In this document: piece after piece, positions 28,933-55,016 of the stretch
Numbering within the stretch: position 1 is the first letter of the stretch
How the letters are laid out: each line of letters starts with the position of its first letter
Origin: Candidatus Micrarchaeota archaeon
GTDB lineage: Archaea; Micrarchaeota; Micrarchaeia; Anstonellales; Bilamarchaeaceae
Assembly: GCA_038046765.1 (NCBI GenBank)
Contig: JBBSVN010000012.1
Span: 32,001 to 96,000 of the forward strand
DNA: 64,000 nt
Direction of reading: 5' to 3'
Translations under genes and position numbers: made by a program
Notes under the pieces: model-generated
Databases searched by the model: none
What the model was told of the DNA's origin: nothing
What the model saw: the letters and a program-made list of their open reading frames with translations, nothing else

Positions 28933-31449
28933 TTATCCCTGCTTATTTTGACTAGTTTTTTTATTGTATAAAAATAAACCAATACCTAAAAATAAAAATA
29001 CATAAAGTAACGGACAAATTGTATTATTAAAAACTCTTTTAACTGGTGGTTTTGTCTCTGTTGTTTCATTTGTATCTGGATCATTTATTTCATTTGTAGT
29101 TCCAGTTTCTTTTTTACCTTCTGTTTGTAATCCTTTAGCCATAAATTTAACTGTACAAGCATCTCCAACAAAATCCCCATTTGAATCTTTTTGATCACTG
29201 TTTGAAATTTTAGGGCAGTTATCTAGTGTATCAACAATGCCATCTTTGTCAATATCGCTGCATCCTTCATCAATTAATCCATCGCCATCATTATCTTGCC
29301 CATCGCAAGCTTCGCCTAAAAATGGAACTAATGGTGGATATCTTTCATCAGTATCTTCGCTTATTTTTCCTAAATTATTTCTTATTGCGTTTAATTCCGG
29401 ACAGCTATTTTTAAGACTAGATAATCCAATCACATCATTTTCTGTCATAGTTCCGTTAATTCCATAATACGGGCAGCCGATAGGAAGTATGGCGTTTTTC
29501 CAGTCATTAGTTCCATTTAATTTAGTTAATGAACCATTTGCAGTGTCATATTCATTATCTCTATTTCCGTTTACGTTTACAGTCTGGCTTCCTGCAAAAT
29601 TACTATCGCAATTCCAGTCAACTGCTGAACCATTTAATCCAAACATAATCATTAAACTGGAATTTGTACGAGTGCGTCCAATTACACCATTTCCAAAAGC
29701 TGCGCTTCGTCCGTTGTTTGTACAAGTATAATAAGAAAGCGCCAGCGGATTAGATGAAATAATTCCATTTGTTTCACTTAAACCTGCATTCTCGTCAAGC
29801 GTGCTAAGTTTTTCATCTGAATAATCTAAATCATAAATAATTCCTAAAGGCGTATTTCGTGGAATCCCGCTAAATTGGAAATAGTAATTCATGATGCTTC
29901 GATAATTTGGTTTAAAGTGCGTGTTATCAAATGCAAGTTCTTTTTCTAACCTGCCGCCATGACCTAGCATCAATGTGTGCCCAAATTCATGCATTAACGT
30001 TCCTGCTACTGCAGTAGTATTTGAACCGTTGCGCATTGCAACAAAGAAATTTCCACCTACTGTTGCCTGGCCAGTTGTATTTTCCTTTTCATGCGTAAAT
30101 ATTCCGTAACGAAATATTCCCGCTCGATTTATATCAAAATTATCTTTTTTTATGTCAAACAAATATTTACTATTATTTGTATAAAATGCGCGCGCTTCGT
30201 TACTGTCATTTAAAGAAAACTGGTCCCATTCTGCCTGCGGTTGTTCTGTGATTGCATTTCCTTCGCCCCATTGTCCAATATCAATATGCAAAGTTATATC
30301 TCTATTAGCAAATGCGTTAACTACCATCTGTAACGATTCATTTGTTGGTTTATGTGTGTGAGAGCCATCTTCCATCCAATCAAGTTCTAAAAACAAATCC
30401 TTCTTTAGTGGGTTAGCCCCCATTGCGGGTAAATCTACCAGCGTTCGTCCATTTTTAACTAATCCATAAACTTCTAAACCATCGCTTAAGCCATCTGCAT
30501 CTGTATCTGCGTTCTTCGGGTCTGTTCCAAAAACGCTTTCATTTATATCGACAATTCCATCTTTATCACTATCAATTTTCATCCATGCGTCGGGGTCAGG
30601 AATTTCTATATTCCAGGAAACGCTCCAGGGTGTGCTGCCGTAAACTGATATTGGGCCTGCATATGTCAGTCCTCCAAAATCTACATTTGAATATCCTGAA
30701 ATTATACTCGCTTTCATCTGGTTTCCAGTTGGTTCAAGTGCTTTAAATGATCCGGAATAGGAAAACTGGTTTTCAGGATTTGCGTCAAACAATGTAATTG
30801 GGACGGAAAAAGTACCTGCAGTTAATCGTGAAAATGTTGTTGTTTGCCTCGCACCACTACAAACTGGATTTATATTTGGGGAAGTTTTAGTTACCTGCGT
30901 AATGTCTGTTTTAGTTACTGGAATTATTAATTTTCCAGCTAAAGAAAGTTCGGGATTTCCACTTAAGCCTGTTTTTTTGTAAATTAATTTTAAATCATAA
31001 CCTTTTAGGTGAATCAAATTCCCGTTTGAGTCTTTGCCGTTACCTGTGCTATATGGGACATTTAAGTTTGAAATTTTGTCGGACCCAGTAGCATTAACTT
31101 CTGTTATATATGCGCATTCCTTGCCCCCCGTATTAGTCTGCTGGTCAATACTCCACTCTACTGCCTCGTTCTGAAATTTAAAAGCCCGATCAGAATATCT
31201 AGTAAGGGAGTCAGAGTTCGGATCAATTTCTAAAAGATACCCAGAAATCTTAAAATTTAATTTTTGCTTTACTGAACCTGTGTTTGTTTGAACATTGTAT
31301 GGCCCAGTATAATCATAAACAAGCGTAATCGTGGTTAACTTATCTGAAACAGAATAATTTTTCGATGTATCGTTCTCAATTGCATAAGCAAAGTTCAATA
31401 TTAATAAAACAAAAACTCCAAAATAAGTCAATTTAGTTAAAAATCTCAT
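28933..31449 (-). CDS. Secreted, membrane-anchored zinc metalloprotease-like protein with Ca-binding repeats
   Basis: Signal peptide, HEFGHTLMLGH, SIMNY Met-turn, DxDxDG and TSP3-like DNCP repeats, C-terminal TM. Confidence 0.8.
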   Translation of the reverse strand: MRFLTKLTYFGVFVLLILNFAYAIENDTSKNYSVSDKLTTITLVYDYTGPYNVQTNTGSVKQKLNFKISGYLLEIDPNSDSLTRYSDRAFKFQNEAVEWSIDQQTNTGGKECAYITEVNATGSDKISNLNVPYSTGNGKDSNGNLIHLKGYDLKLIYKKTGLSGNPELSLAGKLIIPVTKTDITQVTKTSPNINPVCSGARQTTTFSRLTAGTFSVPITLFDANPENQFSYSGSFKALEPTGNQMKASIISGYSNVDFGGLTYAGPISVYGSTPWSVSWNIEIPDPDAWMKIDSDKDGIVDINESVFGTDPKNADTDADGLSDGLEVYGLVKNGRTLVDLPAMGANPLKKDLFLELDWMEDGSHTHKPTNESLQMVVNAFANRDITLHIDIGQWGEGNAITEQPQAEWDQFSLNDSNEARAFYTNNSKYLFDIKKDNFDINRAGIFRYGIFTHEKENTTGQATVGGNFFVAMRNGSNTTAVAGTLMHEFGHTLMLGHGGRLEKELAFDNTHFKPNYRSIMNYYFQFSGIPRNTPLGIIYDLDYSDEKLSTLDENAGLSETNGIISSNPLALSYYTCTNNGRSAAFGNGVIGRTRTNSSLMIMFGLNGSAVDWNCDSNFAGSQTVNVNGNRDNEYDTANGSLTKLNGTNDWKNAILPIGCPYYGINGTMTENDVIGLSSLKNSCPELNAIRNNLGKISEDTDERYPPLVPFLGEACDGQDNDGDGLIDEGCSDIDKDGIVDTLDNCPKISNSDQKDSNGDFVGDACTVKFMAKGLQTEGKKETGTTNEINDPDTNETTETKPPVKRVFNNTICPLLYVFLFLGIGLFLYNKKTSQNKQG

Positions 31450-32970: not shown

Positions 32971-33420
32971 TTATCTGCAAGTTGGAGCCATCGTTAACAT
33001 TTTCTCTCCTCTCTTTTCCTTTAGGTGGCTTCCGATTATTTTTACAACTGGTCTTTCATCACTTGCTCGTGTGTAAAGCGTTCCATGCCATTCTTTAATT
33101 CCAAATTGATCGTTTAATAATTCTAAAACTGTATTAACGTCAAAGCATCTACAGGAATACAAGTCAAAGTAAAATTCGTTTGACCCATCCTTGTGAGTAA
33201 ATAAATGCATCGAACAATGGCTAGTTGTAATCATCTGTACAAAGCTCTGACCTGGAAAATCCAAATCAACTGCATCGGCCCAGTTTAATGGTCCTAGCGG
33301 CTTCATTTCTATTGCTTTTAGCAACCTATCCACAAAACGCTGTGCATCTTCCCTAGGCAAAGCCTTAAAAGAGGGCGAGATCTTCGCGTTAACCGTCAAA
33401 TGTATATGTTCTAACGACAT
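32971..33420 (-). CDS. S-adenosylmethionine decarboxylase-like (pyruvoyl-dependent) proenzyme
   Basis: ITTSHCSMH and DLYSC correspond to the SpeD ESHxSxH and DxxTC motifs. Confidence 0.7.
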   Translation of the reverse strand: MSLEHIHLTVNAKISPSFKALPREDAQRFVDRLLKAIEMKPLGPLNWADAVDLDFPGQSFVQMITTSHCSMHLFTHKDGSNEFYFDLYSCRCFDVNTVLELLNDQFGIKEWHGTLYTRASDERPVVKIIGSHLKEKRGEKMLTMAPTCR

Positions 33421-37063: not shown

Positions 37064-38422
37064 TTAAATCAGCCTTATTTCTTTATTTTCCTTATCAAGT
37101 TGCATTAAACTAACTGTTGCACCATTTTTAGTTGCTTTTTTTATTGCAGGGTTTTGACACAGAACTTGCTTTAAGAAATTTAAAACTTCTGGATCAGAAT
37201 GTACAATCACAATATGTCCCGTACTTTTAACACAATTAACAGAAGCAAGTGCATATTCAATGCTTCCAAGTGCTTCTTCGCTTAATTCTGCGTTTTTCAA
37301 ACTAACCGCGAATAACTCGTTTAAATCTGCACCAAAGAACGTGCGGCCATTTGTTACATTGCCTAAATCTTTTGGATCGCTTAAAATTATCGCGTGAGCA
37401 TACTGTTCTGCAAAAGTTTTTCCTGCAATTTTAGCGTGCATGATCGCGATTCGCACTTCGGATGTGGTTTCTGAAACAAAATCAGATAATTCTCTTGTTT
37501 TAGAATAAGTAAGTCCTAAATCAGTTGTATTAAATCCGATTACTCCCGCATATACTTTTATTTTTCTTTCTCTTACAATATCTAAATTAGCTAATACTTC
37601 TCTTTGATATTCTGTGTTATTGATAAATATGTTGGGGTGACCAGAGCCTTTTATGTGGATTCGATCTAATAACCTATCAATGCTTTGGCTTTTTCCGCGG
37701 TGTTTATGTTCGTCTTTTTTAACTAAGCATGCTCCGCAACCAATGTGGCCAATAACAAAAATTTCGCCATTTTCCTTAAGTTTGTCTATTACTGCACGTA
37801 CTTCATCAGTTACTGCATTTCCCGCAATCTGTACAGTTGCTATGTGTTTACCCTCATAATGCCTAAGAGACGTAGCCTCACACCTGGAATCAGAACACAT
37901 TAATACAACTGCGTCATACTCTTTAGGTGTTTTTACTAAAGTACGTTCAAGTGCTCCTTTAGCTCCTGCAATTAAAATTTCTCTTGACGCTTTGATGTCA
38001 AGGAGTCCTTGTTTTGCTATTATTCTTTTTAAGTCATCTATATAAAACGGATTTTTTCTGCTTTCTCTTACTGAATCTGGAATAAGTAATCTTTCACTTC
38101 GAGTAAAACTTCTTGGTCGTGCTACTTCTTTATCTGTTTTTCTTGGGTCTTCTCTATGCTCTACTCCTCTTAATTTTTGTAACGAAAGAATAATATTTTC
38201 TGCATCTTTTAATCTTTTTTTAGCCGTTTTGTCCTTTTTGTTTTGAATCAGTTTTTCCTTAATCTTTTCTATATTGGCAACATTGAATTTCCGATCTCCA
38301 AGAATTAGCGTAGCTTCAGGAAAATTCTGCTTATTTAAGTCTAAGCAAAAATCAATTAATTCCTGGTGAAGCATAGGATCGGTAATCTGAATATTTTTTA
38401 ACTTCAAGTCCGGACACTTCAA
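37064..38422 (-). CDS. Beta-carbonic-anhydrase-like protein: N-terminal extension, intact CA domain, degenerate CA domain
   Basis: CSDSR (CxDxR), IAGN, GHIGCGA (HxxC); the second domain has GSIEYAL...HIVIVH but no Zn ligands. Confidence 0.8.
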   Translation of the reverse strand: MKCPDLKLKNIQITDPMLHQELIDFCLDLNKQNFPEATLILGDRKFNVANIEKIKEKLIQNKKDKTAKKRLKDAENIILSLQKLRGVEHREDPRKTDKEVARPRSFTRSERLLIPDSVRESRKNPFYIDDLKRIIAKQGLLDIKASREILIAGAKGALERTLVKTPKEYDAVVLMCSDSRCEATSLRHYEGKHIATVQIAGNAVTDEVRAVIDKLKENGEIFVIGHIGCGACLVKKDEHKHRGKSQSIDRLLDRIHIKGSGHPNIFINNTEYQREVLANLDIVRERKIKVYAGVIGFNTTDLGLTYSKTRELSDFVSETTSEVRIAIMHAKIAGKTFAEQYAHAIILSDPKDLGNVTNGRTFFGADLNELFAVSLKNAELSEEALGSIEYALASVNCVKSTGHIVIVHSDPEVLNFLKQVLCQNPAIKKATKNGATVSLMQLDKENKEIRLI

Positions 38423-38471
38423 TACATCGCCTAATTCTATGTCTTTTTTTATGTTTTAAAAACTTATAAAA

Positions 38472-39491
38472 CTATGCTAGAATAAAAGTTTGGCCATTCA
38501 TCTTGTTGAACTTCATCAGGGTAATTAGTTTTCCATTTTGGCTCTTTTCTTTTATTATTTTACTTTCAAGAATCTGTTTTTTTAATTCCTTAACTGTATC
38601 ACTATCTGTATGAAGTATCATTATATGTGGTGAGTCCTTAACTCCATGAACCTTTAATAGTGCATCTTCTATTGCTGCAATTGATACTGTAGCTATTTTC
38701 TTACCAAAGTTACTCACGCATATAATTTCGTTTAAATTTCCGTCAAAGATTATTCTGGGGTTGTTTACTAAACCTAGGTCTAGTGGGTCGCTTAAAATAA
38801 TTGTATGTGCATATGCTGCATTCAAATTTACTCCCTGGTTTTTAGCCTTTGTTAATCTGCTGCTTAAACTTCTTTTTAATCCGTTTATACTGTTGCTTGG
38901 TTTACCATCTTTTAGAAATCGTATTGGTTCAAGACTATTTGTAAAATCTGCAAGTACTGGTATTATTGCTGCTTTTTTAGATATTAAAATTTCGTTGTGT
39001 TTTAATTTTTCTACCTGGTTTATTGCATTTGCAGAGTATATATCTTTTGCAAAACTATCCTTTTTACCAATTTCCACGTGACTAATTAAATTATCTATGC
39101 TGTTACTAATTCCTCGGTTATTGCTTTCCTGTGCTTTTAAATCACATTCATAGCACATTAGCGATCCGCAGACAATTACTTCTCCATCTTGTTTTATTCT
39201 GATAAATCCGTTATCCAAATCATCTGTTACTATCTGCCCTGCAGTTTGTATGTTTAAAATTTTTTGTTCTAGGTAATCTGTTAGAATTGTTGGATCAGTG
39301 CGTGGTCCAGTTGATGAAACTAAAACTAAATCATATTCCGCCGGTTTAGCCAAGTTCGCTTTCTTTTGGGTTATTTGCCTTACAAATGCTGCGTTTCCTG
39401 CAATTAACAAATCAAGCGATTCTTTTACTAAAATTGGTTGCTGCGTTTGTACTTTCTTCATTACGACATCGAGTAATACCATCGAACGCAC
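38472..39491 (-). CDS. Degenerate tandem beta-carbonic-anhydrase-like paralog
   Basis: LIAGNAAFV; STGPR replaces CxDxR; GSLMC replaces GHxxC; shares YAH.IILSDP.DLG and NLNE blocks with its neighbour. Confidence 0.7.
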   Translation of the reverse strand: MRSMVLLDVVMKKVQTQQPILVKESLDLLIAGNAAFVRQITQKKANLAKPAEYDLVLVSSTGPRTDPTILTDYLEQKILNIQTAGQIVTDDLDNGFIRIKQDGEVIVCGSLMCYECDLKAQESNNRGISNSIDNLISHVEIGKKDSFAKDIYSANAINQVEKLKHNEILISKKAAIIPVLADFTNSLEPIRFLKDGKPSNSINGLKRSLSSRLTKAKNQGVNLNAAYAHTIILSDPLDLGLVNNPRIIFDGNLNEIICVSNFGKKIATVSIAAIEDALLKVHGVKDSPHIMILHTDSDTVKELKKQILESKIIKEKSQNGKLITLMKFNKMNGQTFILA

Positions 39492-39583
39492 CTCTGGTGG
39501 ATAATTAGTACTTTATAGTAATAGCTTATGCTAGTAAAGAATTAAAAAAAGGAAAGATTAAATTATTTGAAAAATATTTAAAA

Positions 39584-40126
39584 TTATTTTCTCATTTTCT
39601 TGGATTTTTCCTCTAAGATCATTCCCGCTTTAAGAAGTCCTGCCAGAAGTTGATACGGGTTAGGTGGGTTTCCAGGTACATTTACATCAACTGGTACAGT
39701 ATCTTCAACTTTTCCGCTTCCAGCTAATGCATAACTACCTTGATATGGAAAACCCGTAACTGCACCATCTCCTGCTGCGACAACTACGCGCGGGTCTGCC
39801 ATCGCATCATAACTTTTCTCAAGTGCAAGTTTCATATTCATTGTAACTGGACCTGTAACAATAATTACATCTGCATGCCTTGGCGAGGCTACATAGTGGA
39901 TTCCAAATCTTTCTGCATCTACACGCGGGTTCATCATCATCTGTTCTTCAAGTTCGACATCGTTTGGCGAACCAGCGTCAACCATTCTAACGTGTATTGA
40001 CTGCGCAAAAGGGTTAAGACTGCGTTTTTTAAGTAGTTCTGCAACCTCTCTAATATCTGGGTCATCTGAATTAGGATCTATACGGTCCGGATATTTTTCA
40101 AAAAGGAATTTGAATATTTCAAACAT
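39584..40126 (-). CDS. Ehr/HycG/NuoB-like small subunit lacking all Cys ligands
   Basis: DAERFGI, SPRHAD, VTGPVT, PVDVNVPGNPP; no Cys in 180 aa. Confidence 0.9.
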   Translation of the reverse strand: MFEIFKFLFEKYPDRIDPNSDDPDIREVAELLKKRSLNPFAQSIHVRMVDAGSPNDVELEEQMMMNPRVDAERFGIHYVASPRHADVIIVTGPVTMNMKLALEKSYDAMADPRVVVAAGDGAVTGFPYQGSYALAGSGKVEDTVPVDVNVPGNPPNPYQLLAGLLKAGMILEEKSKKMRK

Positions 40127-40135
40127 ATTTACACC

Positions 40136-41692
40136 TCACAAATCAGTACCTGCGTAAGACATATTAAAGCTTTTATTTATAAGCGGGAAATCTGGCACAA
40201 TATTTCCAGGAACTAAATTTTCCGCGCCACGCCAGTTACGAAAAGATGCTGTCCTGCATCTAAAACTTTTTATTGTTCCATTATCCATTAGTTCAATCAT
40301 GAATGTACAAGAACCTCTTGGTGCCTCTGCCCATCCTAAGCTCCATACACTTTTACGCGATTTTGAAACTGGTACTGGTGCAAGAATCTCGCCATTAGGC
40401 ATCTTGGCAATTACTGTCTTTATGATTTCAACTGCTTGTTTTACTTCTGCAATTTTTACTAGGAACCTGCATAATACGTCTCCTCCCTCTTCCTTCTGTT
40501 CGCTAAACTTGACCTTATCATAAAATTCGTAAGGGAAGTATTTTCTTACATCGCAGCTATATCCTGCTGCACGAGCGACAGGTCCAACTAAAGATAATTT
40601 TTGCGCAACCTCTGTTGTAACTATTCCTGTTGAATAAACCCGATCAAGATATGTTGAGTTTGTCAATGTAACTGTTTCAAGTGTGTTTAATCTATTGACA
40701 AAGTTGTCAAGTTCGCTAACTAAAACACTAATTTTAGTCTCATCTAAGTCTGCTTTTACCCCTCCTGGTGTACAAACTCCCCCTAAGAACCTATGGCCAG
40801 TTATTTTATTATTAAGGCGCATCATATCCTCGCGCAAAACGGCGAATCTAGATGCTGCGAAATAAAATCCGACATCTGTTGGCATTCCGCCTAAATCCGA
40901 TAAATGACTGTATATTCTTTCAAGTTCAGCTAAGATCACTCTTATTGCCTGCGCTCGTTCTGGAACTTTTATATCTAGCGCTTTTTCTACCGCTGTACAA
41001 TAGCCGATCATATTCGCAATTCGTTCATCTCCTGAAATCGATTCTATAAGTGGTATTGCTTCGGTTATATTTTTTCCTTCAACTAGTTTCTCAACCCCCC
41101 GATGAAGGTAGAACATTCTTGTTTCAAGTTTGTTTATTGATTCCCCGACCACGCTGAATCTAAAATGTCCTGGTTCGATTATACCTGCGTGAACTGGGCC
41201 AACTGGAATCTGGAATTCACCTTCGGCACCCGTCATCGGCATTTCGTAAACGTAATCTGCATTTTTACCCAATCTTTTCTTCTGACCTTCTATATTTTCT
41301 AATCCGCCATCAGGATGGAAAAGTATTGGACGTGAATCTGGAATGTTATCAAATCTAAGTCCGCTTAAATCCTGCATTTTCCTCTCATCCCATACTGCTG
41401 CGTTAACAACTGCAGAAACTGCATAAAATTCCTTGCCTTCTGCATATAATACTGCGAATGTTTCAAGAGCTGGCACACGAAAAACATATGATGCCTGAAA
41501 GTTTCCTTTTTCTAAATCACTTATAAATGAGCTATCGAATAATGCATTCTCTTTAATCATTTTTTCACTTAAACCTGGCAAATCTTTGGAATTACATTTT
41601 ATCCAGACTATTCCTGATTGTTCAACAGAAGAAATTTTTGCATTAGCAGATGACTCAAGCTGTTTTAAGAATTTTTCTAATTTAGAATCCAT
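40136..41692 (-). CDS. Ehr/HycE-like large subunit (NuoC-NuoD type) without NiFe-binding motifs
   Basis: GPVHAGIIEPGHFRF, HRGVEK, ESISGD, EAPRG, DFPLINKSFNMSYAGTDL. Confidence 0.92.
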   Translation of the reverse strand: MDSKLEKFLKQLESSANAKISSVEQSGIVWIKCNSKDLPGLSEKMIKENALFDSSFISDLEKGNFQASYVFRVPALETFAVLYAEGKEFYAVSAVVNAAVWDERKMQDLSGLRFDNIPDSRPILFHPDGGLENIEGQKKRLGKNADYVYEMPMTGAEGEFQIPVGPVHAGIIEPGHFRFSVVGESINKLETRMFYLHRGVEKLVEGKNITEAIPLIESISGDERIANMIGYCTAVEKALDIKVPERAQAIRVILAELERIYSHLSDLGGMPTDVGFYFAASRFAVLREDMMRLNNKITGHRFLGGVCTPGGVKADLDETKISVLVSELDNFVNRLNTLETVTLTNSTYLDRVYSTGIVTTEVAQKLSLVGPVARAAGYSCDVRKYFPYEFYDKVKFSEQKEEGGDVLCRFLVKIAEVKQAVEIIKTVIAKMPNGEILAPVPVSKSRKSVWSLGWAEAPRGSCTFMIELMDNGTIKSFRCRTASFRNWRGAENLVPGNIVPDFPLINKSFNMSYAGTDL

Positions 41693-41694
41693 AT

Positions 41695-43167
41695 TTAAAC
41701 ACCCCCGATTAAACTACCTGCATCTTTTATTAAATTAAGAACTGGTGCTGGAGGGAACAATGCTAATGCTATTGCAAGAAGCAAAAGCGCAATCACTGAA
41801 AATGACATGTAAGGACTTACTTCTATATGTTTTGGCATTTTTTCCGGCTTATTACCAAAGACCATATCTGAAGCTTTGTAGAGGAAACTTGCAAATGCAA
41901 TTACTGTAAATACGATTACAAAAAGAGCAACTAGGTATTGTCCCTTTGATAATGCGCCTCCTAGAAGTGCAATTTCAGAAAAGAACGTACCAAATGGGAT
42001 ACTTCCAGCCACTCCTAAAACAGCTAGTAAAAATAAAAGTCCAAAAACAGGTACTGCGCTTGCAGCTCCCTTTATATCTGGCATATTTTTAGTGCCATAT
42101 GCATTTGTTATAATTCCACCTAAAAGAAATGCTAATGGTTTAGCTAAAGAATGAGCAAGCATATGGAATAATGCTGCAAAAATTGCTATTGGTCCACCAA
42201 TTCCAGTAGCTAGTACAATAATTCCCATATTCTCTACGCTTGAATATGCTAAAAGTCGCTTAAGGTTATCTTGTGCAAAAAGACGAAGCGCGCCTACAAC
42301 TAGGGAAAGCACGCCAAATAGTATAAATAATCCTGACGCAAAACCTGCAATTTCTGGTGACAAGATTACAATTCCATATACTCTTAATATTCCATAAAGG
42401 GCTATATTTAATATAAGTCCGGATAGTAAAGCACTAACTGGAGTTGGTGCCTGACTGTGCGCATCTGGAAGCCACACATGCAACGGTACAAGACCAACCT
42501 TTGTCCCGTATCCAACTAAAACGAATACGAATGCAAGTTTAAGGTATAGTGGGTTTATTTTGGTAATATCAAACGGTGTTCCGTAAACTGGGGTTTCTAA
42601 ACCTCCCTGTGCAAATGCATAAAATAAAACAAGAATTCCAATAAATGCCAGTGTAAATCCAACAGAATTTATTGTAAAGTATTTCCATGCTGCTTCTATT
42701 GAAGCTTTGGTGTTGTAAAAACTTATCAAAAACACTGATGAGAGTGTTGTAAGTTCAACTGCTGCCCAAACGTGAATTGGGTTTGATGCTAAAAGTCCAG
42801 TTAGCATTGCAGCTAAAAACAGGGAAAGCTGTGCATAAAATCTTGCGAGCCTGTCTTCTTTAATTATTCCTTCTTCTACTTCATGGCGCATATATCCTAC
42901 AGAGTAAATAAATACCAGTAGTGAAACAACTGATGTAATTCCTATTAAAAATGCTGATAATGCATCCATTCTAAGTAGTTCTGAGAAATCTGAAATCGGT
43001 GCCCCGCTACTTATGAAAATTGATATTGAAAATAGTGCTGCACCAACTGCTCCAAGAGCGCCTAAACATGCAACTAATTCTGCAAGTCGCGGGTGTTTAC
43101 CTAAAAATACAGCAATTATTCCTGCAATTACCGGGAAAAGAATAATTAATTCAAGCATAAATATCAC
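41695..43167 (-). CDS. Antiporter-like membrane subunit (HyfF/EhrD-like)
   Basis: EAAWKY, GYGTKVGLVPLHVWLPDAHSQAP, KRLLAYSSVENMG. Confidence 0.9.
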   Translation of the reverse strand: MIFMLELIILFPVIAGIIAVFLGKHPRLAELVACLGALGAVGAALFSISIFISSGAPISDFSELLRMDALSAFLIGITSVVSLLVFIYSVGYMRHEVEEGIIKEDRLARFYAQLSLFLAAMLTGLLASNPIHVWAAVELTTLSSVFLISFYNTKASIEAAWKYFTINSVGFTLAFIGILVLFYAFAQGGLETPVYGTPFDITKINPLYLKLAFVFVLVGYGTKVGLVPLHVWLPDAHSQAPTPVSALLSGLILNIALYGILRVYGIVILSPEIAGFASGLFILFGVLSLVVGALRLFAQDNLKRLLAYSSVENMGIIVLATGIGGPIAIFAALFHMLAHSLAKPLAFLLGGIITNAYGTKNMPDIKGAASAVPVFGLLFLLAVLGVAGSIPFGTFFSEIALLGGALSKGQYLVALFVIVFTVIAFASFLYKASDMVFGNKPEKMPKHIEVSPYMSFSVIALLLLAIALALFPPAPVLNLIKDAGSLIGGV

Positions 43168-44840
43168 CTTTTTTCATTAAGTTCAGCAAGTTCTCCAGTG
43201 TCAACGGTTTTCGCAATACTCTGGATTTTAAGCGCTAAAACTACTGATACAACTACCAATACCAATATATCAAAAAGCGTAATTGCTTCGGATATAAGCG
43301 GGATGTCCACACCAAGCGCAACTGGTAAAAGTACAATTCCGTTTTCCATTATCAAAAATCCTAACATCTGTAAAAGAATGTGCGTTTTTGTTGAAATAAT
43401 TAAAAGACCTATTAAAATTATTGAAAGTGCAATTGGTAAAACTATTCCTGCAGTCAGGCTTGAACCCACTAAAAATGATACGGAAATAAGTAACACTGAA
43501 ATTACTAATGCTGTCGTAGTTGTAACTGGCGCATCGATAAATAATGGGTCGATATCGATTAAGCTTCTTAATTTCACATTCGTGTGCTTTAGTACATCGG
43601 TTATTCCCTCTGGTGTGAGGTTCGTTTTATCAAGTAAATTCTCTCCTTTTGCCATCTGGTTAAAAATTCGATATATCAAAAGCGGTAAAATTATTACCTT
43701 TAAAATTACTGTAATGCCTAGTCTTAAATAGCTGTCAACTGAACCTGTTTTAACTGCTATAAGTGCAAAAATTATTCCAAGTGCAACGTTTTGCAATAAA
43801 TATATCTCTATTCTTCTTTTGAACGTCGCTCCAAAAAGGAAATATAAATTGCTTATTAGCATTACGCAAAGTAATATTGGGACTGTACCGTTTGCGTTTG
43901 GGTCTGGATTAATATGTATTAAAAATGCGAATACTGCCAAATTCAAGGCAAAGACAAGAAGCTCGGCAACTTTAAATAATCTGACCTTGACGCTAAATGA
44001 TTCAACTATTGCTGTAATTACTCCCAAAACTAGTACTGTTGCTAAAATTGCGGCTGTTCGGGATATCGGGTCGCTAAATAATGCAAGCGGAAAAAATAAA
44101 TTTGCAAAAAGCGTGAAAAATAAAAACATTTTTGAAGCTTGCGCCCATTCTATAAGTCCAAGGCTTGGGCCAGAATTTTCAAGAATCATTGCCTCGTGGA
44201 CCATTGTTAGTTCTAGGTGTGTAGCTGGGTTATCAAAAGGAAGTCTGCCCATTTCAGCTAGCATCAATATAAATAATGCGGCAGCTGCTAAATAAAATGT
44301 TGGCGAACTAAGAATTCCGAACCAGTTGTTTGGTCCATTTGCAGTGAATATCATTAAGTTGGTACTTCCTGAAAATAATACTAAAAATAAAATTGCTGCA
44401 AAAAGGACTGGTTCAATTAAAACAGAATATAATGATTCCCTGCTTGAGCCTAATCCTCCAAATGCGCTAGCTGCATCCAGGCCAGATAAGATTACTACAA
44501 ATCTGCCTATTGCAAAAAGATAAACGAATATTATTATGTCTGCTACAAATGGCGGAACTGCGGTAAATATTGGTAAAAGTAATGTTGCAGCTACTGTTGA
44601 AACAAAAATAAAAATCGGTGTCGCTAAAAAGATCCATGAACTAATATCGCTTCTAACTGTTCCTTTACTAAATAATTTTACAAGGTCGAAATATGGTTGT
44701 ATTATTGAAGATCCGCTCCTACCCTGACAATATGCTTTGACTTTTCTTATGACTCCAACTAGGAGCGGTGAAAGCGCAAAAACAAATAAAATCTGTACAA
44801 TCATTCCTAAAACTGAAGATATCATTGTCATAAATATCAC
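43164..44840 (-). CDS. Fusion of HyfC (NuoH-like) and HyfE-like membrane subunits
   Basis: N-terminal QPYFDL, GSSRE, RLPFDNPATHLELTMVHEAM; C-terminal GFLIMENG. Confidence 0.85.
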   Translation of the reverse strand: MIFMTMISSVLGMIVQILFVFALSPLLVGVIRKVKAYCQGRSGSSIIQPYFDLVKLFSKGTVRSDISSWIFLATPIFIFVSTVAATLLLPIFTAVPPFVADIIIFVYLFAIGRFVVILSGLDAASAFGGLGSSRESLYSVLIEPVLFAAILFLVLFSGSTNLMIFTANGPNNWFGILSSPTFYLAAAALFILMLAEMGRLPFDNPATHLELTMVHEAMILENSGPSLGLIEWAQASKMFLFFTLFANLFFPLALFSDPISRTAAILATVLVLGVITAIVESFSVKVRLFKVAELLVFALNLAVFAFLIHINPDPNANGTVPILLCVMLISNLYFLFGATFKRRIEIYLLQNVALGIIFALIAVKTGSVDSYLRLGITVILKVIILPLLIYRIFNQMAKGENLLDKTNLTPEGITDVLKHTNVKLRSLIDIDPLFIDAPVTTTTALVISVLLISVSFLVGSSLTAGIVLPIALSIILIGLLIISTKTHILLQMLGFLIMENGIVLLPVALGVDIPLISEAITLFDILVLVVVSVVLALKIQSIAKTVDTGELAELNEKR

Positions 44841-46816
44841 ACCATAACTGCGTAAATAAGAATTGCAACCATGACAAATAGCATGTACATCAAGTAATGT
44901 AATAATTTTCCTGTCTGGAATATTGAAGACCTGGACGAAATTGCTCTAAATCCATTTTCTATTGGCTTATAAATAACTGCCTCGAAAAATGCAGGCCCAT
45001 ACGCATTCTTTTCTGTATTAAGCGGATTAAGCCATCTGTTTAATGCCCTTTGAATTGGCATTGAAATTCCTATTGGGGTATATTCCATTTTTGATTCTAC
45101 TTTATGTATTCCGCAATCCCATGTAACCCTAGTAACATCATTTGCTTTTGTAAATGCTCGAATAATCCAGAGGAATGCAAAAACTGCAATTGTCGCCCCT
45201 AATAAAACCAATACGATTCCAAATGAAGGAAGGGTAAATACAACTTTTGATGTTGCGCTCATATCGCTAATATTTAACTTTGCAAACATCGGGCTAATTA
45301 TCGAAAATATTATTGTTGGGAAAACTCCCGCTATAATACACGCAATTACTAGTATGATCATTCCTATGTGCATTAACGAACCTACTTCTTTAGCGTGTTC
45401 AACATGTTCGCTTCTAGGTAATCCTAAAAATACCATTCCAAATGCCTTAACAAAAGCTGCTAATGCCAGTGCACTTGTAAATGCGAGGACTAAAACAACT
45501 GCACCAAATAAGAATGCAATTAATTTAGGAAGTGCTAATCCTGACAAAAGTGCCTGGAACATAGTCCATTCGCTTGCAAAACCATTTAATGGTGGCAAAG
45601 CAGAAATTGCTGCTACGCCGACAAAGAACAAAATTGCAACTACTGGTAGTTTCTTTATCAACCCACCCATTGCGTTCATGTCTTTAGTGTGTGTTGCGTA
45701 AGCAACTGCTCCTGCTCCTGTAAATAAAAGACTTTTGAAAAGCGCGTGATTTAATGAATGGTAAAGTGCTGCAAATAATGCTAATGCTGCTAATGCGTCC
45801 ATGTTTAAACTATGAAATAATACTGCAGCTCCAATTCCTAAGAAGATAATTCCTATGTTTTCTACACTTGAATAAGCGAGAAGTCGTTTTAAATCTTTTT
45901 GAATTATCGCATATAATACTCCGAATACGCAGGACACTGCTGCTAATAATAATAATAAAATTCCCCACCAGAAATGGAATGGAGTTGCACCTAAAAAGTC
46001 AAATAATACCCGAATTATTCCGTAAATTGCTACTTTTAACATTACTGCGCTCATTAAAGCGGATATATTACTTGGTGCCTGGGGGTGTGCTTCTGGTAAC
46101 CATGTATGAAATGGCATTAAACCAGCTTTTGATGTAAACGCGATTACTGCCAACACAAAAATGATACTTGCTAACATGGGTGTTAAACTAATTGTTCTAA
46201 ATCCGGCAAAGTCCATGTTTCCTGAAAATCCAGTGAAAACCAGGAACATTAAAATTAATGCAACTGCACCGATATGCGTTATTAGTAAGTATATAAAACC
46301 AGCATCTTTTGTTTTTGCTTCCTTGCTTTCATATGTTACAAGGAAAAATGAGCTAAGTGCCATTAGTTCCCAAAAAATTAAAAAAAGAAGACCGTTTTGA
46401 GAAGTTACAACTGCAATCATAGACAAAATAAAAATATTATAAAGAAAACCAAATAACGCGTTACTATATCCTTTTTCCTGGTACTCTTTCATGTAATCTA
46501 TTGAATATATCGAAACTGCTAGTCCAACTAAAGAAATTAATAATATGAAAAATCCAGAAAGCGCGTCAATACTAAAAGTTAAATTTCCAATCGGGGCAAA
46601 ATTTCCCAAGTTTAATGGTGCAATATTTGTGCCCATCATTACCATAAGCCCAGCTATTACTCCAATAATGCAACCTAAGATTGCAAATAAAAATGAAAGT
46701 TGCCTGCATAAATTTTTCCATTTGGATAAAACAAGCGACACTAAAGAACCAAATAAAAATAAAACAAAAAGGCCTAATAAACTCTGAGCGGTAAAAAGTT
46801 CAATCAAATTAACCAT
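44837..46816 (-). CDS. Antiporter-like membrane subunit (HyfB/EhrA-like)
   Basis: FWELM, KAGLMPFHTWLPEAHP, AYSSVENIG, PPLNGFASEW, WDCG. Confidence 0.92.
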   Translation of the reverse strand: MVNLIELFTAQSLLGLFVLFLFGSLVSLVLSKWKNLCRQLSFLFAILGCIIGVIAGLMVMMGTNIAPLNLGNFAPIGNLTFSIDALSGFFILLISLVGLAVSIYSIDYMKEYQEKGYSNALFGFLYNIFILSMIAVVTSQNGLLFLIFWELMALSSFFLVTYESKEAKTKDAGFIYLLITHIGAVALILMFLVFTGFSGNMDFAGFRTISLTPMLASIIFVLAVIAFTSKAGLMPFHTWLPEAHPQAPSNISALMSAVMLKVAIYGIIRVLFDFLGATPFHFWWGILLLLLAAVSCVFGVLYAIIQKDLKRLLAYSSVENIGIIFLGIGAAVLFHSLNMDALAALALFAALYHSLNHALFKSLLFTGAGAVAYATHTKDMNAMGGLIKKLPVVAILFFVGVAAISALPPLNGFASEWTMFQALLSGLALPKLIAFLFGAVVLVLAFTSALALAAFVKAFGMVFLGLPRSEHVEHAKEVGSLMHIGMIILVIACIIAGVFPTIIFSIISPMFAKLNISDMSATSKVVFTLPSFGIVLVLLGATIAVFAFLWIIRAFTKANDVTRVTWDCGIHKVESKMEYTPIGISMPIQRALNRWLNPLNTEKNAYGPAFFEAVIYKPIENGFRAISSRSSIFQTGKLLHYLMYMLFVMVAILIYAVMV

Positions 46817-47184
46817 ATTCTAACCTACAGTTGGATTTTTTTGAATAATACCTAATACTTAGAAAGGTAAGTTTTTAAATTAAACACTTGGGCGTTTCGA
46901 GCTAAAAATTAGATTTTTTATATCTCGTTTATTCTAAAATCAATCAAAATCAAGATACGGTATCCAAACTAAATATATTTGGAACTGCTTATAAATACTT
47001 CGCTGATAAATCGCCACTAACTACAATTAAAAAGACAATGCATCAAAGTTTTATAAAATCGATAAACGAATTGAAAATAAAAATTAAAATTTGTGTATCA
47101 TCAATTTAACATAGGTTTATAAACACTTTTAGACAGAAATTATCATATATCTTTCAAACAAGTAAAATAAAACAAGGCAAGAAA

Positions 47185-48420
47185 ATGTCTGTAGATTTAA
47201 GAAGAATTAGTCACAAACTTAAATTAAGCGAAATGGATATAAGTGCAATCCCAAGTCTGCGTAGATCTACTACCCCGTTATCTATTCCTCAGTCTGCTTT
47301 TGAAATATTTCGTGGCTTTAGCCTATTTAATGAAAGGATTAGGCCAACTAAACTTCTAGGTGTACGTTTTGAACGAGTTGCTGGTCAGGCCTTTGACAAA
47401 AAGGATTTGCATTCCAGGGAAGCTATAAGAAGAAATTTATTAAGCATAAAACAAAAAGGTGCATTTTTAATTTTAGGTCATGGTGGGGAAATTGGTTGTG
47501 GTGCAATTAAGGGAAAGCAAAATCCAAATCCATCCCAACCTCAATTAGTAAAAGATTTAGTTGAGCATATATCCGAAAGAGTCATAGGATTAGATGATTT
47601 GCAGTATGCTGCTTCTATAGAAAATGCTTTATTTCAAGGCATAAAAATTTTACACGATCCTGAATTTGCAGCAATAATTAAAGAAAAAGATATTACTGTT
47701 GTTTATGCTGTTTGCAATGGTGATGCCAACTATTCCTATAATGCCTTAAATAAAGGGCTTAATGAAAATGCACTTCTATTTAAGCACCCAAAGTTACAGC
47801 AATTAAGAGAACAGTTCCAGCATGGGTTAGCTAAAGTTTCAGAATTTGGCATAGATCTTAAGAAACAGTATGCTTATGCTGCATTTGGTTATGATCCAGC
47901 TGAACTTGCATCTGTAATAGATAAATATAGCACTGAAATCGAACTAGGGGGGGTATGCTGTGTTGATTCAAGACTTCCACCACATACTGGTGTTTACTAT
48001 TTACTTCGAATTGAACCAAATGAAGCCTTTTCAGGAACATTTCATCATTCAATTAGGCCTGATGGTGTTTATCAACCAATAATTTCTAAATTAGCGGCTG
48101 GGAGTATAGAATTTGGTCTTCAAAATGTTTGTGGAATAAATAGTCTAAATCCCGATAATCCTGGAAATGGGCATTTAGTTATGCTTGCAACTAGTCTAGC
48201 TAATGCAAGAAAAATGAAAGAAACTGTACTTCAATTCTCTGGTACTGCTCGCGCAACAAAAGATGGAAAAACAATTTCACTACTTAGTTTTGATGGAAAA
48301 GAGTTAGTAATGCAAAATGATTCTCTTGGTTTTGATTTGGTTGCATCTTATGATTCTCCCGCTCAAATACTTACGCGACCTCCATCTGAATTTGCAGAAC
48401 TTATGGATCAACGAGCCTAG
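47185..48420 (+). CDS. Rearranged beta-carbonic-anhydrase-like protein
   Basis: RVAGQ and GHGGEIGCGA in the N-half; CVDSR and GSIEFGL...GHLVML in the C-half. Confidence 0.7.
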   Translation: MSVDLRRISHKLKLSEMDISAIPSLRRSTTPLSIPQSAFEIFRGFSLFNERIRPTKLLGVRFERVAGQAFDKKDLHSREAIRRNLLSIKQKGAFLILGHGGEIGCGAIKGKQNPNPSQPQLVKDLVEHISERVIGLDDLQYAASIENALFQGIKILHDPEFAAIIKEKDITVVYAVCNGDANYSYNALNKGLNENALLFKHPKLQQLREQFQHGLAKVSEFGIDLKKQYAYAAFGYDPAELASVIDKYSTEIELGGVCCVDSRLPPHTGVYYLLRIEPNEAFSGTFHHSIRPDGVYQPIISKLAAGSIEFGLQNVCGINSLNPDNPGNGHLVMLATSLANARKMKETVLQFSGTARATKDGKTISLLSFDGKELVMQNDSLGFDLVASYDSPAQILTRPPSEFAELMDQRA

Positions 48421-50533: not shown

Positions 50534-51355
50534 TTATACTCTTTCTCCTGCCAAAAATCCAACTAAAAATCCTATAAACGCGGCAGCCAGTCCAATAACC
50601 ATCATTTCTAAGCCCGTTTTCCACCACGTTCCTAATGTAGTTTTACCTTTGTATGCGCCTATTGCAAATAGGCTAATTGCAGATACAAAAAGCGATACAT
50701 AAGACGCGCTAACAACATTCATAAAGAAAAATGGCGTAAGCGGAATTAATGAACCGACAAATGCCGAGATACCAACAACAATTCCTTCTTTTGTCGGGTT
50801 AATATCTGCGCTTTCGGATAATCCTAATTCTTCGGTCATCATTGTTTCTAACCAAAGTTTTTCATCGCTTATTATGTGCTTTACAATTCCTTCAAGGTCT
50901 TTTCCTTTAAATCCCTTTTTCATATAAATTAGTTTTATTTCCTCTTTTTCAACATCAGGGAATTCTTTTATTTCTTGTCTTTCGCGCTCTAGTTCTTTAT
51001 AGTAAAAATCCCTTTGAGCTTTTCCAGAGGTATATGCCACTGCGGCCATACTTATTGATTCGGCAAAAGTAGCAGCTAATCCACCTACAATTACTGCGCC
51101 CGCAGCAATGTTCGTGTTAACAATCGCAGCTGCGGCTAGTCCTAAAACAATTCCTAAAACATTTACTAAGCCGTCTTGTCCGCCTAGTATTACCTGACGT
51201 AGTAAAGAACCCTTGTCATTTTGAGGGTGTTCTTCTTTGTGAATAATATTTTTGTATGCCTGTTCTAAGGATTTTGCCATAATTAGTTTTTTGCAGTCCT
51301 CTTTTTTAAACATCTGGGTTTTTGCAGTCTTACTATAATATTTAAAAGCATACAT
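50534..51355 (-). CDS. VIT1/CCC1 family Fe/Mn transporter
   Basis: GGQDGLV, ISMA, MMTEELG; the true start may be 51280. Confidence 0.9.
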   Translation of the reverse strand: MYAFKYYSKTAKTQMFKKEDCKKLIMAKSLEQAYKNIIHKEEHPQNDKGSLLRQVILGGQDGLVNVLGIVLGLAAAAIVNTNIAAGAVIVGGLAATFAESISMAAVAYTSGKAQRDFYYKELERERQEIKEFPDVEKEEIKLIYMKKGFKGKDLEGIVKHIISDEKLWLETMMTEELGLSESADINPTKEGIVVGISAFVGSLIPLTPFFFMNVVSASYVSLFVSAISLFAIGAYKGKTTLGTWWKTGLEMMVIGLAAAFIGFLVGFLAGERV

Positions 51356-53468: not shown

Positions 53469-55016
53469 TTATTCGATCAATTCTACAATCGCTTTTTGCT
53501 GTCGTTCGCTTGCTGTAACGCGGAATCGTATATGCTTAAAAGTTGTATTATTTCCTATTCCAGCCCTTGCCTTTATTTTAGCTAGAGTTTCAAGATCAAA
53601 TTCTCTTTGTACAATAAGCAATTTTCCAGTCTCTGCTAGAAGTCCTTTCCAATGCTCTGCTGCATCATCATCGTGCTTTTCTCCACCTACTTCAGATAAT
53701 ACTCTTGCATTGTTGATATAAGGATAAATAATCGATCGTCTGCCTTCTGAAACAAAATCTGAAGGATAAAAAACAATATAATTACTGTGTGTTTCATTAA
53801 ATCTTATTAATTCTTCAACCTCGAATCGATGTATCAGTACAACTATCCCTCCACACTCAAAAATTCCGCTCTTTCCTTTAACATATTCTGCACGAAATAA
53901 CAGATCTTTAGGGTTCGAAAAATCGTAAAAATCTGTATTGATGTTTACATCTGCAATCTGCAGAATTGTAACTTGCGGTTCGCCGTTTTCTTCAATTATC
54001 GCAAATTCAATATACTGTGGTTTTCCAATCAAATTTTCCAGTTTTTTTAGTTTTTCAAATAACCAGACTAAATTTTTTTCCTGTATTGCATTGTCTGGTA
54101 CATCTATCTCTGATACTCCCCCATATTTTAAATTAATCGCCTCTCCTTTTTTATCATCCCTAGTTTTCAGGATTATTCTTTTAAGTTTTCGTAATTCATC
54201 TTCCTCAATTTTTTTCATTGATTTACTAACTGTTTTTAGTCCTAAACCCGGGCATATTTTTACGTAACCTTTACCTTGCGAAGTTGAAGTGTATGCTAAT
54301 CCACCATATGCTGGTGCAAAATAATTTTTTTCAAAATCCCCTGGTTTTGTTTCTGGTCTTTCTGAATAATCCTTCCAGAAATCATCTTCTCTTGCTTGAC
54401 CATAAACTGGTTCAATAATTATTGCCATTCCTTCTGCTAAACCCTTATCTTTTCTAAAAGTAATCGCATCTAAAGAAAATTCGCTTTCTAAAACGTTCTT
54501 AATTGAATCAACTAGGCTCTTTATTTCCCATCTCTCAAACTCGTCGTTATATTTCTTTAATAAAGGTATGCAAAATTCGCTTTGATATGTTCCGGTTCCT
54601 CGTGAATCCCCGTAAGCAGATGATCTGACTGCAACAGGTGTTCCTTTGAATTTCTCATCTAAAGAATTTATTATCGCCAATTCTTGTTCGTTAAAAGTTC
54701 CGTTTCTAATCAGTTGCTGAATTTCATTCGGACTAGCGCCTTGAGCTACTGCTGCGTTTATTCCATTTCGTTCTTTAAATCCTTCAAAAAACCCCATTGC
54801 TAGAACAGTTCTTGGATTCGCTACAAAACCCGCTTGAATTATTGCCCAGGTTTTTCTCATTAGTTCTTCTGCCTTATCTCCGATTGAACCCGAACCAATA
54901 ATTGTCCAATATTTTTCATTAAGCTTGGCTACTTGCGTTTGCCTGGCTACTAAAAGGTTTCTAAAATTTGAGCGATCTGTTGCTACTATTTGTTGTACTA
55001 ATCTAGAATTAGACAT
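53469..55016 (-). CDS. PEP/pyruvate-binding (PPDK N-terminal ATP-grasp) domain protein
   Basis: IGDKA, VAVRSSA, GTYQS, IEFA, ILQ. Confidence 0.75.
   Translation of the reverse strand: MSNSRLVQQIVATDRSNFRNLLVARQTQVAKLNEKYWTIIGSGSIGDKAEELMRKTWAIIQAGFVANPRTVLAMGFFEGFKERNGINAAVAQGASPNEIQQLIRNGTFNEQELAIINSLDEKFKGTPVAVRSSAYGDSRGTGTYQSEFCIPLLKKYNDEFERWEIKSLVDSIKNVLESEFSLDAITFRKDKGLAEGMAIIIEPVYGQAREDDFWKDYSERPETKPGDFEKNYFAPAYGGLAYTSTSQGKGYVKICPGLGLKTVSKSMKKIEEDELRKLKRIILKTRDDKKGEAINLKYGGVSEIDVPDNAIQEKNLVWLFEKLKKLENLIGKPQYIEFAIIEENGEPQVTILQIADVNINTDFYDFSNPKDLLFRAEYVKGKSGIFECGGIVVLIHRFEVEELIRFNETHSNYIVFYPSDFVSEGRRSIIYPYINNARVLSEVGGEKHDDDAAEHWKGLLAETGKLLIVQREFDLETLAKIKARAGIGNNTTFKHIRFRVTASERQQKAIVELIE

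Follow-up and report, generated by a model that had tools for sequence, protein, structure and literature searches.

What could a complex I-type ion pump do once its electron-carrying centres have gone, and why would it lie among genes resembling carbonic anhydrases? The question is raised by a locus in the window, a stretch of 64,000 nucleotides (nt; positions 32,001 to 96,000, forward strand, of contig JBBSVN010000012.1, assembly GCA_038046765.1) from a Candidatus Micrarchaeota archaeon. The genome holding the window, G000, measures 1.5 Mb and is 89.7% complete; genome (G), locus (L) and genus (g) labels are internal identifiers of this analysis. A first-pass annotation, made from the window alone, had read here an Ehr-type complex flanked by three genes for proteins like beta-carbonic anhydrase (beta-CA), and had suggested a link to CO2 and bicarbonate. 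We call the redox-free Ehr complex Ehr*, and its large and small subunits EhrL and EhrS. What is new is that Ehr* and the ordinary CA are distributed across the whole order as one or the other, and that one replaces the other at the same chromosomal site. From comparison of sequences we propose, with a probability of about 0.6, that Ehr* is an ion-gradient-driven bicarbonate supply replacing the ordinary soluble beta-CA. The genes concerned are, in window coordinates (lengths in amino acids, aa):

44837..46816, minus strand: EhrA/HyfB-like antiporter-type subunit (NuoL/MrpA-like), 659 aa; NCBIfam hydrogenase 4 subunit B, E 6.9e-193
43164..44840, minus strand: HyfC (NuoH-like)-HyfE (NuoK/J-like) fusion, 558 aa; Pfam NADHdh E 8.4e-38 and Oxidored_q2
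41695..43167, minus strand: HyfF-like antiporter-type subunit (NuoM/N-like), 490 aa; NCBIfam hydrogenase 4 subunit F, E 5e-110
40136..41692, minus strand: EhrL, large subunit lacking NiFe ligands (NuoCD/HycE-like), 518 aa; alignment to HycE (7z0s)
39584..40126, minus strand: EhrS, cysteine-free small subunit (NuoB/MbhJ-like), 180 aa; alignment to MbhJ and HycG
39492..39583, minus strand: intergenic gap of 92 nt between operon and CA2, with a run of 7 T, possible archaeal terminator
38472..39491, minus strand: CA2, type A two-domain beta-CA-like protein, probable pseudo-enzyme, 339 aa; 31% identity to CA1
37064..38422, minus strand: CA1, type A two-domain beta-CA-like protein, 452 aa; Pfam Pro_CA E 1.3e-7
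47185..48420, plus strand: CA3, two-domain protein of beta-CA fold (type B), divergent from the operon, 411 aa; AlphaFold2 model

Ehr* and the ordinary carbonic anhydrase as alternatives

The ordinary beta-CA is a protein of about 190 aa that matches Pro_CA at E 1e-37. Its exclusion was first seen in ten Ehr* genomes, none of which gave a match to the CA profile (0/10). Across the whole order, EhrL of Ehr* was found in 20 of 176 genomes (E < 1e-60) and the ordinary CA in 124; the CA was present in only 1 of the 20 Ehr* genomes, compared to 123 of the 156 without Ehr*. All genomes are incomplete (53-92% for Ehr* carriers), so that here and below "not found" does not mean absent. In the nine Ehr* genomes that were new in the order-wide search, the ordinary CA was again not found in eight. 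Restricting the count to the two families that carry Ehr* gave 1/20 versus 104/121, and the same pattern was seen inside single genera: 0/5 with Ehr* versus 32/35 without in g5, 0/6 versus 15/17 in g23, and 1/4 versus 3/3 in g30. The stratified p value for exclusion within genera, about 1e-9, is overstated because kin are not independent. The presence label requires six changes both on a tree of eRF1 (27 sequences) and on a quick tree of glmS (18 sequences), and well-supported branches force at least three of these changes for eRF1 and at least four for glmS; both marker trees cover the genomes with retrieved loci. The trend in Elusimicrobiota had the same direction, with Pro_CA in 0 of 9 Ehr genomes and 30 of 112 others (p 0.11). 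One match to the ordinary beta-CA (G013:C13:8026-8586) lies inside an 850-aa open frame and is perhaps a fusion.

The Ehr* operon occupies the chromosomal site of the ordinary CA gene in two families. Genomes of g5 without Ehr* show the order eRF1, often purE, ordinary CA, CA-like gene, glmS, while those with Ehr* (G331, G324) show eRF1, purE, Ehr*, CA-like gene, glmS. Similarly in g30, the arrangement type C-CA-type D of G120 (types C and D are described below) is type C-Ehr*-type D in G110. In G000 and G194, Ehr* lies at a different site, beside cdc6, and the ordinary CA was likewise not found. In G214 and G244 (L125, L133), type A and type B genes lie beside cdc6 as in the window, and neither Ehr* nor the ordinary CA was found.

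Some genes of CO2 or bicarbonate metabolism were noticed near these loci. In four genomes (L037:12441-12926, L144:1880-2368, L163:15394-15831 and L164:15147-15665), purE adjoins the cluster of Ehr* and CA-like genes or sits inside it, and in several others it adjoins the ordinary CA. In G088, a gene for Sua5 (threonylcarbamoyl-AMP synthase), a user of bicarbonate or CO2, lies two genes downstream of the Ehr* operon (L041:5393-6475).

Operon layout

The tight five-gene operon of the first-pass annotation (HyfB, HyfC-HyfE, HyfF, NuoCD and NuoB types) was confirmed by coordinates, gaps and Pfam/NCBIfam matches: its intergenic spacings are -4, -4, 2 and 9 nt. It encodes a complete Ehr subunit set, with two antiporter-like subunits, a NuoH-like and a HyfE-like subunit, and large and small hydrogenase-like subunits, HyfC and HyfE being fused. 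This fusion is common to the Micrarchaeota loci, whereas most bacterial loci have a separate HyfC of about 318 aa; in G331 (L163:11585-13248) and G254 (L172:3176-4730) it is in pieces, through assembly error or decay. Each Ehr* subunit is present in a single copy in G000, and no further subunit of complex I or of a group 4 hydrogenase was detected there. Downstream, EhrS and CA2 are separated by 92 nt and CA2 and CA1 by 49 nt. Archaeal transcription terminates at oligo-T runs, and since the 92-nt gap with its run of 7 T follows EhrS, the CA genes probably lie outside the five-gene transcript. A scan for bacterial-type promoters and terminators was at chance level for promoters (46 versus 49.5) and was not used.

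Loss of the metal centres and conservation of the pocket

When EhrS was aligned to MbhJ and HycG, the four ligand positions of the iron-sulfur (Fe-S) cluster were occupied by P54, V57, G121 and N153, which belong to a fixed motif, S-[PS]-N-D-V-E / G-D-G-A / G-N-P-P. Similarly, EhrL reads SGDE and SYAG at the positions of CGIC and CYSC in HycE (7z0s). The ferredoxin motif CxxCxxCxxxC did not occur in any of the 1738 open reading frames (ORFs) of the 89.7% complete G000 in a search by regular expression only, and HypD was not found in any of the five Ehr* genomes searched (completeness 89-92%). Ehr* thus does not have the NiFe ligands of a group 4 [NiFe] hydrogenase, and HypD, one of the Hyp maturation genes, was not found with it. 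The earlier statements that the NiFe CxxC motifs are missing and that the small subunit has no Fe-S cysteine were borne out, and the suggested loss of electron transfer is supported. The absence of NuoI, which had been listed as a special feature, was rejected as such: it is the rule in Ehr/Hyq, as is the absence of NiFe motifs (PMC3357923). Among the missing features, only the cysteines of the small subunit make Ehr* unusual within Ehr.

This cysteine loss is a conserved trait of a clade. Among the best 120 EhrS homologues, query included, all four ligands are gone in 111, which have the fixed replacement motif in common and 2 of which are partial sequences; the remaining ones are 2 with another cysteine-free pattern and 7 with all four ligands. 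Close homologues that carry a name are mostly labelled Micrarchaeota, and the small subunit of Ehr* was detected in 13 of 301 genomes of the phylum. Two unpublished genomes, G197 and G029, are counted in the tallies over these 301 and nowhere else. In a quick tree, 21 aligned EhrL form one clade separate from bacterial Ehr (support 100). The residues of the former metal pocket of EhrL (H168, E173, D222, D266, R459, D501, N506-K507-S508, N510 and D517) are invariant in all 21 Micrarchaeota sequences and present in 69-72 of 72 bacterial Ehr sequences. The charged channel residues are intact, in agreement with the earlier claim that antiporter-type motifs are well conserved: E150, K230, H244, K261, H353, K361 and E416 of HyfB are invariant in the 20 relatives covered (20/20), as are E138, K223, H237, H339, K343 and E398 of HyfF in 22/22. 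The acidic residues E135, E143, E196, D203, E210 and E216 of the HyfC-HyfE fusion are conserved too.

In Ehr of the alphaproteobacterial type, about 29 of the 120 matches of a second EhrS search lack some or all ligands. The Fe-S cysteines were lost there separately, and the substitutions are variable. These sequences (P0119, P0126-P0154; L175, L179, L182, L183) have Ser, Asp, Asn or Glu in place of the cysteines and are 75-80% identical to cysteine-containing relatives. Two other small subunits were noticed. One, from Melainabacteria (L089:9887-10432), keeps only the first ligand cysteine and has GDGA and GNPP as in the Micrarchaeota clade; by eye, its operon is preceded by an ArsR-like gene and a gene for a small membrane protein. 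The other belongs to a divergent Ehr-like operon in G219 (L043:671-5324), which has separate HyfC and HyfE and whose small subunit keeps at least the GCPP cysteine.

The flanking CA-like proteins

At least one CA-like gene of types A, B or C flanks 16 of the 20 Ehr* operons of the order. Among the four loci without such a neighbour, three end inside or at the operon, and the fourth (G350) has none downstream, its upstream side being cut. This placement, together with the distribution of the ordinary CA (1/20 versus 123/156), supports the suggested link to CO2 and bicarbonate. At least three types alternate at the Ehr* locus and none is universal; G000 has no type C gene. The first downstream CA-like gene is convergent on the operon in 11 of 16 loci. 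As controls, the CA profiles gave no match in 78 bacterial Ehr loci, taken from a contig scan of at least 600 rows with mostly cysteine-containing Ehr among the matches listed, or in 8 Elusimicrobiota Ehr loci. The three Ehr* genomes outside the order also gave no match to types A, B or C.

The description of three beta-CA-like flanking genes stood as regards their placement and fold relationship, but only CA1 matches Pro_CA (32.4 bits versus a cut-off of 25.7) with a zinc (Zn) motif intact in one domain (C176-x-D178-x-R180 and H226-x-x-C229). Type A proteins carry the full Zn motif in domain 1 and keep it in most copies. CA2 reads STGPR and GSLMC at the motif positions, so that the Cys, Asp and His ligands are gone, and is the sole one of 22 type A sequences without CxDxR. 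In CA3 the motif is split, domain 1 having H99/C105 and an insert of domain 2 having C259-x-D261-x-R263, and both halves are kept in 16/16 type B sequences. Types B and C were modelled with high confidence, at a predicted local distance difference test (pLDDT) score of 91. The CA3 model has an additional strand (252-258) running into C259. Because domain 1 lacks the strand with CxDxR and the domain 2 insert supplies a strand ending in CxDxR, type B is possibly, to judge from the model, a strand-swapped beta-CA variant with one Zn site built from two domains.

The predicted CA3 fold best matches a tandem beta-CA, 1ddz (Z 17.5, root-mean-square deviation 3.6, 287 residues aligned), and the best matches of type C are 1ddz (Z 19.0) and the carboxysomal CsoSCA 8thm (Z 14.7). 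Foldseek returned no match to the CA3 model at E <= 0.001, 1ddz being ranked first, and a homologue search with CA3 gave just two proteins. The structure matches listed for CA3 and type C include no DabA chain, which excludes nothing. CA1, CA2 and CA3 have no hydrophobic (membrane) segment. A predicted complex of HyfB (18-sequence alignment) with residues 130-452 of CA1 (22 sequences) scored 0.00 in two runs with no controls folded, and this score was not used for or against binding.

Within the two families, genomes in which Ehr* was not found also encode two-domain CA-like proteins, at least 34 of them by hand count (E < 1e-14, frame of at least 350 aa). As 29 of these 34 keep the ordinary CA, the two-domain proteins do not account for its loss. 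The expectation that cysteine loss in EhrS implies an adjacent CA fails outside the Micrarchaeota lineage in the few bacterial loci that are readable: L174, L180 and L182, with partial cysteine loss and long flanks, showed no CA match, the other 7 of 10 bacterial loci being short or chance matches.

A further family, type D (675-740 aa), carries C-x-D-x-R and H-x-x-C-like motifs and adjoins Ehr* or the ordinary CA; two members that were scanned had no Pfam match. Its members are found at L034:12563-14785, L040:5256-7304, L137:9637-11856 and L144:2400-4427. In G134, from another order, a 257-aa gene convergent on the Ehr* operon (L038:6548-7321) has C-x-D-x-K, NAGG and H...CG motifs that recall beta-CA, with no Pfam or profile support. 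Type D proteins and this 257-aa neighbour did not match the profile of the ordinary CA and were not counted as CA. A motif match on contig C7 was set aside, as by eye it resembles an ankyrin-repeat protein. The type C gene of G331 is split in two (L163:6482-7847), through assembly error or decay.

Comparison with known systems

The original definition of Ehr reportedly goes back to Marreiros et al. (2013). The definition includes a large subunit without NiFe CxxC motifs (PMC6349859, PMC10432482), and in the accessible text of the published accounts redox chemistry is assumed or the role is called unknown (PMC6349859, PMC10432482, PMC2650096). An Ehr clade of the Candidate Phyla Radiation has been noted for its large subunit; the word "carbonic" does not occur in the main text of that paper, as far as it was accessible (PMC7304191). 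Our literature search, thin on subscription journals, gave no paper that connects Ehr with carbonic anhydrase or that reports it from Micrarchaeota. Ehr* shares with Ehr/Hyq the subunit set and order, a large subunit without NiFe cysteines, the lack of NuoI and the same pocket residues. Hyq likewise has neither NiFe motifs nor NuoI, but its small subunit keeps the four cysteines of an N2-type 4Fe-4S cluster (PMC3357923), which EhrS lacks; Ehr* further differs by its HyfC-HyfE fusion, its own EhrL clade and its CA-fold flanks. By subunit set and NiFe loss we thus class Ehr* as an Ehr and, because of the cysteine-free small subunit, not as the Hyq type.

The closest functional parallel is offered by DabAB/MpsAB, the dissolved inorganic carbon (DIC)-accumulating complex (DAC), in which a complex I-type antiporter subunit is tied to CO2/bicarbonate supply. 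In staphylococci, MpsAB and CA are described, in the text accessible to us, as pairs that "rarely coexist" and are interchangeable (PMC8552792), a near mutual exclusion with soluble CA that Ehr* shares. Archaeal SbtA is reported to show the same one-or-the-other pattern with CA, a cytoplasmic CA causing leakage (PMC10880623). DabA contains a pair of beta-CA-like domains, a single Zn site and a membrane finger (10.64898/2026.03.13.711513; PMC13684180). Unlike these complexes, Ehr* has two antiporter subunits and homologues of NuoH, NuoK, NuoCD and NuoB instead of one NuoL-like subunit, and the CA-like proteins beside it, of about 340-450 aa, have no hydrophobic segment like the membrane finger and also occur apart from the complex. 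Ehr* is not a DAB/MpsAB member and may work like one.

Tandem beta-CAs (Porphyridium purpureum 1ddz; CsoSCA 8thm) resemble the flanking proteins in having two beta-CA domains per chain, but the latter carry one ligand set per chain, which type B splits and CA2 has lost, and identity is 9-14%. Carbonyl sulfide (COS) and carbon disulfide (CS2) hydrolases share the beta-CA fold too, and CO2 hydration by the CA-like proteins is a putative activity. The cyanobacterial NDH-1 complex is redox-driven, from ferredoxin to plastoquinone, whereas Ehr* retains no redox centre; Cup proteins are not beta-CA folds. NDH-1(3)/(4)-CupA/CupB is described as a complex I scaffold for one-way CO2 hydration (PMC13684180). 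Finally, Mrp is also a redox-free complex with MrpA- and MrpD-like subunits; the Ehr* operon, in contrast, has no MrpB/C/E/F/G (no such ORFs of at least 80 aa, and the gaps leave no room) and retains a hydrogenase-derived cytoplasmic arm and a NuoH homologue.

Proposed mechanism

In heterotrophs, the main task of a soluble CA is to provide carboxylases with bicarbonate. G000 encodes several users of bicarbonate or CO2, namely a CarB-size carbamoyl-phosphate synthase, PurE and the large subunit of RuBisCO. SbtA was not found in this genome, and DabA (PF10070) gave no match in G000 or four relatives, the control having matched in 2 of 14 genomes. The likeness of the exclusion pattern to that of MpsAB and CA favours an ion-gradient-driven bicarbonate supply. 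In our model the gradient, probably of protons, would be made by the A-type ATPase, of which G000 encodes the c subunit. This subunit has no Ser/Thr after the catalytic Glu, a feature that we take to be a mark of Na+ types when present, and the driving ion is therefore probably H+. The gradient would drive an inward flow through HyfB and HyfF, like complex I in reverse, and coupling would be relayed through HyfE/HyfC to the cytoplasmic arm, where electrons cannot move. The uphill step would be chemical: a proton would be taken from water/CO2, giving one-way hydration, or HCO3- release or import would be gated. A free soluble CA would then be redundant or drain the pool, and hence be lost.

Where the chemical step might take place is a more tentative matter. 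Our preferred version, at somewhat less than even odds, locates it in the conserved former NiFe/N2 pocket of EhrL/EhrS as a putative site. Its placement in a two-domain CA-like protein docked on the complex appears doubtful. We lean towards the pocket because the CA-like genes vary in type, are often convergent, encode proteins with no membrane segment and occur without the complex; the initial picture of docked, DAB-like catalytic subunits is weakened by the same observations. The pocket is the same in bacterial Ehr, and Fe-S loss in the alphaproteobacterial type is independent, so that the whole Ehr family may be an inorganic-carbon pump. In this broad form, which we consider doubtful at best, Ehr would be a third, widespread class of such pumps, the emptied NiFe/Fe-S pocket being the catalytic site of a redox-free CO2 hydratase.

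The locus is real and conserved, and the proposal has better support than gene neighbourhood alone would give it. Several observations weigh against bicarbonate supply as the role of Ehr*. G306 carries both Ehr* and the ordinary CA, the latter on a 1.7-kb contig. Of the 156 genomes of the order without Ehr*, 33 have no ordinary CA either. An EhrL search of 10 CA-less genomes found Ehr* in one (G254) and not in nine, and neither was found in the three genomes of g15, CA1/CA3-type genes being retained in two of the three. Ordinary CAs are kept by two rhizobial genomes whose Ehr contains cysteine; the growth tests in PMC2650096 on rhizobial hyq deletion strains used 5% CO2, at which a defect in carbon supply would go unseen. 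Of the three genomes with Ehr* but from outside the order, G147 encodes a Pro_CA protein at another place. The intact-looking CA1 would drain the bicarbonate pool unless it is gated or inactive, and cassette swapping between conserved flanks could give same-site exclusion without equal function.

Swapping of this kind leads to an explanation in which the exclusion is a by-product: Ehr* would have overwritten the CA gene as an exchangeable cassette, a CA1-like protein would do the CA job and the role of Ehr* would be unrelated. It accommodates the same-site replacement between conserved flanks, the full Zn motif in most copies of type A, and G214 and G244, which have types A and B without Ehr* or the ordinary CA. 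We consider it rather unlikely, however, since G000 and G194 carry Ehr* beside cdc6, at another site, and still lack CA, since 29 of the 34 non-Ehr* genomes with a two-domain protein keep CA, and since the switch recurs several times on the trees. An unlikely alternative of another kind makes Ehr* a secondary cation/H+ antiporter like Mrp, serving pH or salt homeostasis, with the L/S arm as a structural or regulatory cap; CA would become dispensable indirectly, through an alkaline cytoplasm or a high-CO2 niche. HyfB and HyfF are indeed homologous to MrpA and MrpD, the redox ligands are all gone, and a high-CO2 habitat would be expected both to lower the pH of the cell and to make CA less necessary. 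But this alternative leaves unexplained the operon's place at the CA position, or amid CA-fold genes at two sites, as well as the invariant pocket of EhrL and the new motif of EhrS.

The complex could also run in the opposite direction, so that an ion gradient for the ATP synthase is built, or acid exported, as metabolic HCO3-/CO2 is dehydrated or expelled. That G000 has a c subunit and no other complex I or group 4 subunit that we could find fits such a role; it nevertheless appears improbable, as CO2 crosses membranes freely and stores little energy, the replaced gene normally serves bicarbonate supply, and 156 of the 176 genomes of the order manage without the complex. Most improbable of all is that Ehr* has kept a redox-pumping role of the kind proposed for Hyq (H2:quinone) or for formate dehydrogenase (FDH)-Ehr systems, with electrons coming from a partner encoded elsewhere or passing through a non-cysteine metal site. 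Such proposals have been published for cysteine-containing Ehr/Hyq (PMC3357923, PMC6349859, in their accessible parts), and the Asp/Asn/Glu-rich replacement motif could bind metal. Against them stand an EhrS with no cysteine, the missing CxxCxxCxxxC motif in G000 and HypD not found in 5/5 genomes, and a link to CA would not be expected.

The function of the widespread Ehr complexes is unsettled, and the published ideas assume electron transfer. Because no electrons can pass via the usual centres of Ehr* and its conservation is nonetheless strong, this clade isolates the non-redox core of the Ehr family. If bicarbonate supply is its role, Ehr would gain a function, and a new architecture of energy-coupled carbon pump would become available, of relevance to the engineering of carbon concentration. 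It would also show the coupling machinery of complex I driving chemistry without a redox step, and explain the source of bicarbonate for nucleotide synthesis in archaea with small genomes.

Other genes of the window

Genes for an S-adenosylmethionine (AdoMet) decarboxylase-like protein (32971-33420), a VIT1-family protein (50534-51355) and a pyruvate phosphate dikinase (PPDK) N-terminal-domain protein (53469-55016) lie in the window, and relatives show no link between them and the cluster. At 55906-60666, an ORF of 1586 aa has motifs of what we take to be a PolD large subunit with an intein and a homing endonuclease. At 28933-31449, a protein of 838 aa, probably secreted and C-terminally anchored, shows by eye DxDxDG calcium-binding-like repeats and an HEFGH metalloprotease-like motif.

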